From Pseudomonadota bacterium (lineage in GTDB: Bacteria > Pseudomonadota > Gammaproteobacteria > Burkholderiales > JAJZUU01), in contig JAJZUU010000007.1 in NCBI GenBank assembly GCA_021848325.1, positions 2,341-66,340 on the forward strand: a DNA stretch of 64,000 nucleotides. Direction: 5' to 3'. Both the position numbers and the translations under genes were made by a program. The notes under the pieces were generated by a model. It ran no database searches. It worked only from the letters and a program-made list of their open reading frames with translations, and had not been told where the DNA came from. This document shows, one piece after another, positions 3,149 through 64,000 of the stretch (positions are counted from its first letter, which is position 1; the number at the start of each line of letters is the position of its first letter).

Positions 3149-4149
3149 GTGTGCAAGGCCCCATGCCCGGCGGAAAAGCCGGCAGCCCGGCCGGTCCGCT
3201 CCGGGCCCGAAGACCCGAGCCGGCGCCAAAAGTGCCAGGCCAGCCCGCCCACGCCGGCCACCGCCACGACAAACAGCCACGGCAGGGTGGGATCGTAGAA
3301 TATCTTGTACCCCATCCAGGTGCGCAACTCGTCGAAACGCAGGCTGCCGCCCTCCAGGCGCGCCGTTTGTCCCGGCTTCAGCTCGATCCGTCGCCCACCC
3401 GAGGAAACGATCAGGACGCCGCTGCTGTCCTTCCGGTCCATGGTCCAGGCGGCATCCGCTCTGAGGGGGGTCTTGAGCCGCAGCCAGAACCTGATCTCCG
3501 CCCCCCCGGGCGGAGTCCATCTGTTGTCCTGCTTCCAGTCGAACAGTGGATAAGAGGGCATGTGGATCGCTCCGGTTACCGGCTTCCCGTGTTCCGGGAT
3601 CCAGGTAAGCAGGGGCGCAAAGCCCTTGTTGGAACTGGTGTAAAACCGGTAGCCATGCAGGATGAGCGGGTGGTCGTCGCCGACCACCATCGGCACCAGA
3701 CGCCCCGCGCCATCCGGGGCCAGCACCTGGCTGCGGGTGGTGGAACGGCTCAACTCCGGGCCGTAGTCCACGGTGAAAGGGCCCTGCACGAAGAAGACCT
3801 TGGAAAATCCCATGGGGTGCAGTGGGCCCTTGGCCAGGACCTGCACGTCGCCGGGCAGAAAAGCGCTGTCCTCCGTCACCTCCACCACCCCGTCCAGGTG
3901 AACCAGCCGCCCCACCGCCGCCAGGACGACGATCCCCAGCAGCGCCAGGTGGAACACCAGCAGCCCGCCCTGGCGGTTGATGCCCGGGTTGACCGCGATG
4001 GCGGCCAGCAGATTGACCGCCAGCAGGCCCAACGGGGCCACCAGCCACCAAAGGGGGGCGGCAGGGCGGTTGTAGCTCAGCAGCACCCCCGCGCACAGCA
4101 AGGCCATCCCCACCAGGGTGAGTCGGACGGAGGACAACAAACGCAACAT
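3145..4149 (-). CDS. Short ResB/CcsB-like cytochrome c biogenesis protein
   Basis: 334 aa; N-terminal TMs, LLVFHLALL His motif, VVGDDHPLILHGYRFY (ResB NxPL-like), C-terminal YDPTLPWL TM; coupled to ccsA. Confidence 0.75.
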   Translation of the reverse strand: MLRLLSSVRLTLVGMALLCAGVLLSYNRPAAPLWWLVAPLGLLAVNLLAAIAVNPGINRQGGLLVFHLALLGIVVLAAVGRLVHLDGVVEVTEDSAFLPGDVQVLAKGPLHPMGFSKVFFVQGPFTVDYGPELSRSTTRSQVLAPDGAGRLVPMVVGDDHPLILHGYRFYTSSNKGFAPLLTWIPEHGKPVTGAIHMPSYPLFDWKQDNRWTPPGGAEIRFWLRLKTPLRADAAWTMDRKDSSGVLIVSSGGRRIELKPGQTARLEGGSLRFDELRTWMGYKIFYDPTLPWLFVVAVAGVGGLAWHFWRRLGSSGPERTGRAAGFSAGHGALHT

Positions 4150-23629: not shown

Positions 23630-23836
23630 CTAGGAGCCTGTCGGACTTGAAGAATCGAAGCGAAGCGGGTCAGGCAGGCAAGCCGCGTAGCGGCTGCTCG
23701 CAAAATTCGGCTGGCCGAGGACAGATTTTGTCGATTTTGCAGGTCAATAGTCGTTCTATTGACCAAAAAAGCGGCGAAATATGGACCGGTCAGGTGGATT
23801 TGCAGCCGATTTCCTTTAAGTCCGACAGGCTCCTAG
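23630..23836. mobile_element. 207-bp MITE, copy 1
   Basis: Ends CTAG-GAGCCTGTCGGACTT...AAGTCCGACAGGCTC-CTAG; second copy at 63052-63258 differs at one base. Confidence 0.9.
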
Positions 23837-60675: not shown

Positions 60676-60736
60676 GGGCGCAATCCCCGGGGCCCGCACG
60701 GCCCCGCGCTCGACTGTGCCGGTCGGGCGGCGCGAT

Positions 60737-60933
60737 ACTGAACTACCACCTGCTAAAGCAGGTGGGTTAGCGCAGCTAGGCGCAGAGGACTAAAGTCCTC
60801 TTGCTCGCGCCCAGCTAAACGCGCAACACCAGCAAGGTGGAACGAGCTTCGGTTTGTTCCACGCTTGCTGAATTTGCAAGGCTAAAGCTGACCGGCTAAA
60901 GCCGGTGGTTTAAACCTTGCGATGGACAATTAA
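60737..60933. mobile_element. 197-bp non-autonomous IS200/IS605-type element, copy 1
   Basis: Subterminal hairpins CCACCTGC-TAAA-GCAGGTGG and ACCGGC-TAAA-GCCGGT; no terminal IR or TSD; identical to 61887-62083. Confidence 0.8.
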
Positions 60934-60996
60934 CGAGACAAGCGGATCGTAAACTCGTTAAAATAGCTCCTCGCCAACGCTAAGGAGCCGACAACC

Positions 60997-61701
60997 ATGC
61001 AAGTGGGACCCGCCTGCGAAGAACCCAACTTACGGCTCGAGACCCTCCGTTCCCGCGTCCTGCGGATGGGGGAAAAGGTCGAGCAGCAGCTTATCCACAC
61101 CCTGGACGGGCTCGCCAGCGGGGATATCGCCCTGCTGGACCGGATGATCGAGGGCGATCGGGAAATCAACGCCATGGAAGCGGGGATCGACGAGGCTTGC
61201 ACCCACCTCTTGGTGCAACGCCAGCGCGCACCGGGCGCGTTGCGCTTCAGCACGGCCGTGGTCAACATCATCTCGGACCTGAAACGGATCGGGGACGAGG
61301 CCAAGAATATCGCCCACACCAGCAAGCGCATCCACGCTTCGGGGCGCCCCCAGTTACCCGGTTACAGGACAGTCCGCAGCGCCGCGAACGTCACCCTGGG
61401 CATGTTGCGCAAGGTTCTGGACGCATTCGCCCGCCAGGAGGTCAATGCAGCGGCACAGGTCGCCCGGGAAGACAGCGCGGTCCACCACGAATTCCGCTCC
61501 GTCGTACGGCTGTTGGCCACCTTCATGATGGAGGGCCGGCGCGCCATTCCCGCCTCGGTGGACATCCTGTTCGTGGCCATGTCCATCCAGCGCATCGGCG
61601 ATCACGCCGGAAACATCGCCGAACACGTGGTCAATATGGCGGGCGTAGGACACGTGCGCCATACCCTGCGAGGCGAAGAGAGCATTTTGGCCATGAGATA
61701 G
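60997..61701 (+). CDS. phoU: PhoU-family protein (divergent, solitary)
   Basis: RSRVLRMG..VEQQL, D.EINAME..ID, DLKRIGDEAKNIA, RIGDHAGNIAE.V; RBS AAGGAG. Confidence 0.85.
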   Translation: MQVGPACEEPNLRLETLRSRVLRMGEKVEQQLIHTLDGLASGDIALLDRMIEGDREINAMEAGIDEACTHLLVQRQRAPGALRFSTAVVNIISDLKRIGDEAKNIAHTSKRIHASGRPQLPGYRTVRSAANVTLGMLRKVLDAFARQEVNAAAQVAREDSAVHHEFRSVVRLLATFMMEGRRAIPASVDILFVAMSIQRIGDHAGNIAEHVVNMAGVGHVRHTLRGEESILAMR

Positions 61702-61886
61702 GGGCCCGTTTAAAGTCCCGGACCGCACCGTACACCCTTCCTCCCGCCGGGCGCCTGCCCGGAAATTCGTACAGTTCCCCCCTCTCCGTGAGGCAATCGG
61801 CTCCATCAATTCCCCCGATTCGCGGGGAAGACCGCTGGCAGTCCGATGTCCGCCACCAGCTTCCTCACGCAACGCGCCTTACACAA

Positions 61887-62083
61887 ACTGAACTACCACC
61901 TGCTAAAGCAGGTGGGTTAGCGCAGCTAGGCGCAGAGGACTAAAGTCCTCTTGCTCGCGCCCAGCTAAACGCGCAACACCAGCAAGGTGGAACGAGCTTC
62001 GGTTTGTTCCACGCTTGCTGAATTTGCAAGGCTAAAGCTGACCGGCTAAAGCCGGTGGTTTAAACCTTGCGATGGACAATTAA
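61887..62083. mobile_element. 197-bp non-autonomous IS200/IS605-type element, copy 2
   Basis: Base-for-base identical to copy 1, same orientation, offset 1150. Confidence 0.8.
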
Positions 62084-63051: not shown

Positions 63052-63258
63052 CTAGGAGCCTGTCGGACTTGAAGAATCGAAGCGAAGCGGGTCAGGCAGG
63101 CAAGCCGCATAGCGGCTGCTCGCAAAATTCGGCTGGCCGAGGACAGATTTTGTCGATTTTGCAGGTCAATAGTCGTTCTATTGACCAAAAAAGCGGCGAA
63201 ATATGGACCGGTCAGGTGGATTTGCAGCCGATTTCCTTTAAGTCCGACAGGCTCCTAG
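63052..63258. mobile_element. 207-bp MITE, copy 2
   Basis: Same as 23630-23836 except A at 63109 vs G at 23687. Confidence 0.9.
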
Positions 63259-63340
63259 CAAAATCGCCCGAGGACGCGTGAGGTAAGCTGGAAAAAATGG
63301 AGTCCAACGTTTCTGTAAAATGACGAAACGGAGGACTGAG

Positions 63341-63643
63341 ATGGAACGGATACCAAGAGGGATTTACACGCAGGAATTTCGGGAGCAGGCAGTGCGTCTG
63401 CATGAGGTGGATGGACTGACGATACCTGAAGTAGCGAGGCGGCTGTCCTTGCCGGGAGGGACGCTGAAGAACTGGGTTTATGCGGCGCGCCGGGGCAAGC
63501 TGGGCGAAGTGGGCAAGAACCAGAAGCCGCTGACCGATCTGGAACTGGAGCTGGCGCGGGTCAAGCGCGAGTTGGCTGAAGTCAGGATGGAGCGCGACTT
63601 GCTAAAAAAAGCGGCGGCCTACTTCGCGAGGGAGTCGCGGTGA
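63341..63643 (+). CDS. IS3 OrfA
   Basis: YTQEFREQAVRL..VARRLSLPGGTLKNWV..ELARVKRELAEVRMERDLLKKAAAYFA. Confidence 0.92.
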   Translation: MERIPRGIYTQEFREQAVRLHEVDGLTIPEVARRLSLPGGTLKNWVYAARRGKLGEVGKNQKPLTDLELELARVKRELAEVRMERDLLKKAAAYFARESR

Positions 63644-64000
63644 AGTACGGTCGAATGGACGAATGGCGACAGCAATATCCGGTAGCGGTGATGTGCCGTG
63701 TTTTTGAGGTTTCAGAGAGTGGTTTTTACGCTTGGCGGGATCGCCCCTTGTCGCCCCGTGCACAAGAGAATGCACGTCTGGAAATCGAGATTCGAGCGGC
63801 GCACCAGCGCACCCGTGAAACCTGCGGCCCGGAGCGGCTGCAAAGCGACCTGTCCGATCATGGTATCCGAGTGGGCGTGGATCGCATCAAGCGTATCCGC
63901 AGGAAGCTGGGACTGCGCTGCAAGCAGAAGAGAAAGTTCAAAGTGACCACCGATTCCAAACACAACCTGCCGGTGGCGCCGAACCTGCTGGAACGAAACT
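63640..64000 (+). CDS. IS3 OrfB transposase, partial
   Basis: -1 frame relative to orfA: QYPVAVMCRVFEVSESGFYAW...GPERL..L...RIRRKLGLRC..KRKFKVTTDSKHNLPVAPNLL. Confidence 0.9.
   Translation, partial: MKYGRMDEWRQQYPVAVMCRVFEVSESGFYAWRDRPLSPRAQENARLEIEIRAAHQRTRETCGPERLQSDLSDHGIRVGVDRIKRIRRKLGLRCKQKRKFKVTTDSKHNLPVAPNLLERN

Follow-up and report, generated by a model that had tools for sequence, protein, structure and literature searches.

Identical 191-nt copies of a probable non-autonomous IS200/IS605-family element on either side of a phoU paralogue in an uncultured betaproteobacterial lineage

Two identical 191-nt sequences located on either side of a phoU gene are very probably copies of a non-autonomous IS200/IS605-family element (MITE/PATE) that is mobilised in trans by a Y1/HUH transposase (TnpA) and that arrived here by two independent insertions. 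This reading follows from the multiple identical copies of the element together with a tnpA-bearing IS200 whose ends match those of the element. The DNA analysed, referred to here as the window, is a stretch of 64,000 nt (contig C97, C97:2341-66340) from a 94%-complete genome of 3.0 Mb in 119 contigs. Mini IS200/IS605-type elements had already been proposed in the preliminary description of this DNA, and the hairpins, the left-end target, the lack of a target duplication and the cognate tnpA-bearing IS200 all bear this proposal out. The element belongs to a known transposon class and reveals no new mechanism; it provides a clean, population-resolved case of an IS200-derived MITE that is active in an uncultured lineage of betaproteobacteria, with exact empty sites, the target TTAAT, a right-end motif and a candidate mobilising TnpA, and it helps to annotate the element family in Gallionella- and Nitrosomonadales-type MAGs.

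The repeat search of the window detected a 197-nt repeat family with two members that are 100% identical (60737-60933 and 61887-62083) and lie in direct orientation with a start-to-start distance of 1150 nt; a PhoU-domain ORF is situated between both copies, which confirms the identical 197-bp direct repeats around phoU that were described earlier. On the minus strand both copies read TTAA TTGTCC...GGTGGTAGTTCAGT, and the right end of the element consists of the hairpin CCACCTGC-TTTA-GCAGGTGG followed by TAGTTCAGT. The true insert is 191 nt (60738-60928 and 61888-62078) as delimited by the empty sites of sister contigs, and is shorter than the 197-bp repeat, with a 1-nt ambiguity at the border where one T can be assigned to either side. 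The earlier statement that each copy begins with TTAA is right as to the letters, but these belong to the flanking target 5'-TTAAT and lie outside the element. The 191-nt element contains no ORF and no terminal inverted repeats and carries a subterminal hairpin at each end, both on one strand, and its interior is made of four stacked hairpin modules and not of a deleted tnpA. The hairpins near both ends, the internal hairpin and the long stem reported previously were all seen on the minus strand, and the predicted folding energy of the repeat is far beyond that of shuffled sequences on both strands (z = -7.1 and -8.8). The right-end hairpin is separated from the predicted cleavage point by eight or nine nucleotides, TAGTTCAG(T), and both subterminal hairpins are conserved in relatives of the element, while the stem of domain 3 shows compensatory changes in relatives and is lost from some derivatives. 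An IS3-derived MITE was also considered, as the bottom-strand end reads TGAAC, and was ruled out by the lack of inverted repeats and of a duplication. The features of the locus are listed below.

60738-60928 (or 60737-60927), minus strand: MITE copy 1, delimited by six sister empty sites and identical to 6 other genomic copies; its top strand, which is the minus strand of the window, reads 5'-TGTCCATCGC...GGTGGTAGTTCAG-3'
60929-60933, minus strand: target motif (TAM) 5'-TTAAT, which adjoins copy 1 at its left end; part of the flank, as the empty site has it too
61888-62078, minus strand: MITE copy 2, with the same sequence as copy 1; four sister contigs have the empty site ACACAAAGTTAACTAAAGCG
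62079-62083, minus strand: TTAAT beside the left end of copy 2 as assembled; its origin is the ABC-2 site, and on the phoU side the ancestral target reads TTAAC
60891-60906 (copy 2: 62041-62056), minus strand: left-end subterminal hairpin ACCGGC-TTTA-GCCGGT, within an outer stem at 60876-60920
60746-60765 (copy 2: 61896-61915), minus strand: right-end subterminal hairpin CCACCTGC-TTTA-GCAGGTGG
60830-60870 (copy 2: 61980-62020), minus strand: internal long stem, domain 2; base conserved and tip variable in relatives
60770-60826 (copy 2: 61920-61976), minus strand: internal composite stem with the tip GAGGAC-TTTA-GTCCTC, domain 3
60997-61701, plus strand: PhoU-domain gene of 234 aa, two-domain (Pfam PhoU, PF01895, 113.9 bits); native and outside the element
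60935-60964, plus strand: sigma-70-like site GAGACA-18-TAAAAT, a consensus match only; the repeat of copy 1 ends 2 nt before it

Sister contigs were found through exact-protein look-ups with the PhoU protein, which gave six contigs from other assemblies (ENA ERZ27237442, ERZ27237470 and ERZ27237461; NCBI GCA_027438215.1; and two Logan runs) with identities of 99.2-99.97% to the window; the forty same-order genomes that were compared all represent other families, with partial matches to G033 and G018 only. The empty-site comparison suggested beforehand was successful, as exact empty sites are present in the sister contigs. Copy 1 is missing from all six of them, the empty site on the plus strand being GCGCGATAATTAACGAGAC and the occupied site GCGCGAT[A-CTGAAC...GGAC-A]ATTAACGAGAC, so that the top-strand insert is placed 3' of 5'-TTAAT with nothing duplicated, and among the compared assemblies copy 1 is present in this one only. 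Site 2 is empty in at least four sister contigs (ACACAAAGTTAACTAAAGCG) and occupied in two, namely L040, which ends inside copy 2 and displays the same right-end junction as the window, and L069 (a further contig of sample ERZ27237461), where the left-end side reads ...GGACA/GTTAAC/TAAAGCG (slashes mark the joints) and the target is TTAAC. Because the L069 site has TTAAC at this position, the TTAA of the window copies is flanking target and not element. A third site, at the ABC-2 permease gene, is empty in 5 contigs and occupied in 2. Presence/absence polymorphism is therefore observed at three sites among strains that are >99% identical, and the element has been recently active. Copy 2 is shared with one sister population and the two insertions differ in their strain distribution; on comparison of these sequences, copies 1 and 2 are independent and recent insertions on either side of a resident phoU paralogue.

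Across the whole genome, seven full copies of the element and one at a contig end were detected (at least 8), all of them 99.5-100% identical, and the repeat is accordingly not a chance match. Further insertion-site flanks at the ends of contigs C68 and C6 indicate at least one more site, while an nhmmer profile search found no more diverged members of the family in the genome. The left-end flank is TTAAT at seven of the eight genomic copies and TTTAT at the remaining one, the single variant copy on C17, and no target duplication was observed at any genomic copy. With GC skew as a proxy for orientation, four copies lie on the G-rich strand, three are near zero and none is clearly negative. A single short-type relative of ~150 nt was also noticed outside the window (C82:16936-~17085), with a TTTAT left flank and the right end GGTGGTAGTTTAGT, and it represents a subfamily common to elements in Nitrosomonadales and Ca. 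Tenderia MAGs.

The same genome harbors an intact TnpA of 143 aa on contig C94, with a Y1_Tnp match (PF01797) of 158 bits, the HVH (HUH) motif and a C-terminal tyrosine, and its carrier is a 590-bp IS200-like element at C94:~3357-3947. The left ends of this IS200 and of the mini element share an identical stretch of 38 nt, AAGGTTTAAACCACCGGCTTTAGCCGGTCAGCTTTAGC, which includes the left-end hairpin; the IS200 right end, AACCCACCGGCTTTAGCCGGTGGTTGTTTAGT, is 87.5% identical to that of the mini element over 32 nt, and the stems of the two right-end hairpins differ by one compensated base pair. The interior of the mini element (~110 nt) is unrelated to the resident IS200, and because of this and of the compensated difference in the right-end stem, the immediate parent may be another IS200 relative that escaped detection. 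A truncated IS200 copy, comprising the 3' part of tnpA and the right end, lies ~550 bp past the end of the window beside an IS3-family element. IS200 copies were likewise found in sister strains, in G033 (another family of the same order, two copies with 91.7% identity) and in G054, a Gallionella MAG, where they have a TTAAT left flank and end in GTTTAG(T). The earlier observation that neither tnpA nor tnpB occurs in the window holds, the nearest tnpA being the fragment ~550 bp beyond it and the intact gene that on C94; the search proposed at that time for tnpA/tnpB elements with the same ends was answered in part, with a tnpA-only IS200 found in the genome and no tnpB.

The IS200 group is composed of tnpA-only elements, such as Salmonella IS200, and the transposition mechanism of the family is established for IS608 and ISDra2, the latter with the target TTGAT, which resembles the TT(A/T/G)AT observed here. 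The element described here shares with IS200/IS605 members of the IS200 group the association with a Y1/HUH TnpA, the subterminal hairpins on one strand, the absence of terminal inverted repeats and of target duplication, and a left end located 3' of a fixed short motif, which is here the pentanucleotide TT(A/T/G)AT; unlike the IS200 group, the window copies are gene-less and would need TnpA in trans, and this lineage has a target (TTAAT) and a terminal motif at the right end (TTCAG/TTTAG) of its own. The PATEs of Haloquadratum and the PATE-like elements of Geobacillus stearothermophilus are similarly short and gene-less, with IS200/IS605-type ends, several identical copies and mobilisation in trans, but those PATEs are linked to tnpB-bearing IS and often to omega-RNAs, whereas no TnpB was found here and the sole autonomous relative is tnpA-only. 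According to PMC5027513, insertion of an IS200/IS605 left end invariably takes place 3' of a tetra- or pentanucleotide particular to the element. The hairpins, the target and the matching ends seen here make up the anatomy by which 'peel-and-paste' elements of this family are defined. By analogy with this family, the 143-aa TnpA of the 590-bp IS200 would bind the subterminal hairpins of the top strand when it is single-stranded. Cleavage would take place on the 3' side of 5'-TTAAT, which flanks the left end, and, for the right end, on the 3' side of ...GTTCAG(T). A single-stranded circle would then be released, with the predicted right-end/left-end junction ...GGTAGTTCAG(T)/TGTCCATC..., precise excision would leave the joint TTAAT/TATCGCG, and the circle would reinsert 3' of another TT(A/T/G)AT without target duplication ('peel and paste').

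The exact 24-nt right-end pattern was found at 19 loci in Gallionella, Sideroxydans, Nitrosomonadales and Ca. Tenderia MAGs, all of which are gene-less, and no autonomous element with this right end was present among these 19 exact-pattern loci. The relatives split into a long type (~190 nt, like the window copies) and a short type (~150 nt, like the C82 relative); their left flanks are mostly TTAAT, TTTAT or TTGAT, and at the right end they have TTCAG, TTTAG or TTAAG and then a T. The RNAalifold consensus of eight long-type members comprises four hairpin domains with five pairs that show compensatory changes, and some derivatives in the family are without a whole hairpin domain. The consensus energy is -67.1 kcal/mol for the top strand versus -68.1 for the bottom strand, and because both strands are equally stable the consensus structure is silent on RNA versus DNA and on the strand. 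An excess of G-U pairs in the consensus was set aside as an artefact of a prediction made on one strand only.

The phoU gene is one of three PhoU paralogues in the genome, with metG, a DsrE-like gene and a DsbC/G-like thioredoxin-fold gene upstream of its region and an ABC-2 permease downstream on the minus strand. It had been proposed as the cargo of a composite unit, in which the two outer ends, the left one from copy 2 and the right one from copy 1, would move 1.34 kb together. Both copies are intact and directly oriented with the outer left and right ends correctly placed, and an IS608-type TnpA requires only the ends (PMC5027513), but this proposal is contradicted, by an observation that the preliminary description had itself listed among its possible refutations, in the sister strains, which retain phoU at the same locus without copy 1 in six contigs and without copy 2 in at least four, with the two insertions distributed differently among strains. 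Moreover, the 953-bp segment between the repeats is single-copy in the genome (the other match being a 67% paralogue only), its GC of 0.64 is like the 0.647 of the window, and the unit was not found elsewhere in any other assembly by the exact PhoU-protein look-ups, which makes a composite transposon highly improbable; joint mobilisation by the outer ends would be a capacity only, and nothing in these sequences indicates its occurrence. A different role for the element or its end hairpins would be mainly that of a structured small or cis-regulatory RNA, psRNA14-like, with the repeats affecting the expression of neighbouring genes. The predicted folds are very stable, copy 1 has its repeat ending 2 nt upstream of the promoter-like phoU site, and Rfam psRNA14 (RF02351) resembles the end hairpins, with its 5' hairpin consensus ACUcAAcAACCACCGGCUAAAGCCGGUGG close to the IS200 right-end bottom strand ACTAAACAACCACCGGCTAAAGCCGGTGG. 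The resemblance nevertheless covers one hairpin only, with scores of 18-26 bits (best 25.6) far under the gathering threshold of 60, and the element is not a member of that family; the structure has no strand preference, and because the insertion sites are polymorphic any regulatory effect would be incidental, so that a mainly regulatory RNA is considered very unlikely. The psRNA14 matches lie at L011:1369-1433 and at 60733-60823 of the window, and RF02351 may itself be built on IS200-type end hairpins. As for the site GAGACA-18-TAAAAT, it is a possible phoU promoter by its consensus match, with a core that the insertion of copy 1 would have left intact; the upstream context of this putative promoter is replaced by copy 1, and a hairpin after the dsbC/G-like gene precedes the end of the copy 1 repeat.

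The preliminary description had also raised an orphan omega-RNA, in which the element would be a PATE with a TnpB guide-RNA scaffold whose transcript would run across the right end into the flanking DNA and serve in trans. Such an idea is reasonable, since PATEs 'often encode omega-RNAs' that are acted on in trans (Meers et al. 2023, PMC10055086), and the ~130 nt of conserved structured sequence before the right end, with some compensatory changes, are in keeping with it. It is nonetheless made highly unlikely by several results: no TnpB was detected in the 94%-complete genome by either PF07282 or NF040570, with the positive controls detected; only 4 of the 14 MAGs that carry the element family have TnpB, and their seven TnpB loci (PF07282) are not similar to the element; the autonomous relative in this genome is an IS200 with tnpA alone; the structure is equally good on both strands; and the Rfam search of the element gave no family at threshold, the covariance-model check called for earlier having returned only the sub-threshold psRNA14 matches. 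The conserved internal hairpins could instead constitute a functional RNA, for instance a guide-like or regulatory one, with a non-TnpB partner, in which case each insertion would make a new flank-specified RNA, or extra TnpA-binding sites that boost mobilisation, although we regard this as very unlikely. The repeats might lastly be sequences of the REP/REPIN type, serviced by a domesticated RAYT (TnpA-REP) and not by a true IS200 transposase. REPs likewise resemble IS200 end hairpins (PMC3333891), and a second Y1_Tnp protein of 253 aa (56 bits; C71:164-925, L012) is longer than the IS200 TnpA and RAYT-like. Against this, the element has distinct left and right ends that match the IS200 ends, a defined TTAAT insertion and few copies that are perfectly identical, it does not form an inverted REP doublet, and no similarity to it was found on C71, all of which renders a RAYT-serviced repeat extremely improbable. 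The non-autonomous IS200/IS605-family element, mobilised in trans, is thus retained as the preferred reading.

The right-end junction of copy 2 with the downstream flank of phoU is genuine, being present in L040 as well, and the arrangement of phoU between two direct copies therefore stands. Downstream of phoU the sister strains have a 61-aa ORF, then a chemoreceptor gene and a C_GCAxxG gene, and this DNA was not found in the assembly of the present genome; the left-end flank of copy 2 in the window is the 3' end of the ABC-2 permease gene, identical to C94, where the same MITE-ABC2 segment occurs with the ancestral VanZ-like neighbour on its far side. Copy 2 as assembled may therefore reflect either a real recombination between two MITE copies, which would have deleted or rearranged the intervening DNA, or an incorrect contig join over the repeat or mixed strain haplotypes, and we lean somewhat towards the latter. 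This leaning is based on the 1372-bp overlap of C94 and C97, which differs at one base, inside another multi-copy repeat; on the tail of C97, which is made up of an IS3 and of pieces that have duplicates on C94; and on the independent assembly L069, which pairs flanks in a similarly implausible way across the element. The earlier suggestion that recombination could delete or amplify the unit is possibly borne out, as copy 2 joins its right-end flank on the phoU side to the left-end flank of a different insertion site, but a mis-join fits equally well. The last ~3.4 kb of C97 (from window position 61887 to the contig end) comprise segments of C94:2808-5320, reordered and reoriented, together with the IS3, and are probably the product of assembly through repeats or the haplotype of a second strain. 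On C94 and C97, the joins that place the element next to the IS200 and to ABC-2 run through repeats and may not be reliable. The case serves as a warning that contigs joined across these 191-nt repeats can be chimeric.

Several other mobile elements were observed in the surroundings. An unrelated MITE of 207 bp, whose 19-bp terminal inverted repeats are perfect (CTAGGAGCCTGTCGGACTT...AAGTCCGACAGGCTCCTAG), is located at window positions 63052-63258 and 23630-23836; full or partial copies of it (135-170 nt) occur on >60 contigs, and because many of these lie at contig ends this MITE fragments the assembly, while it is missing from the ABC-2 locus in some sister strains. The IS3-family element occupies window positions 63259-64000 and continues to C97:66888, with orfA carrying HTH_Tnp_1 (63320-63643) and the start of orfB carrying HTH_21; its far end abuts the truncated IS200 just past the window, and several contig ends likewise carry an IS3 end. 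Outside the window, 27-bp tandem repeats, GGGGCGTCCCCCAAGGGGACTTCCTGC, were found at C97:67547-67613, at C94:2808-2847, and on C73 and C118, where they adjoin the right flank of the IS200 and lie in or beside a DDE_5-type transposase remnant.
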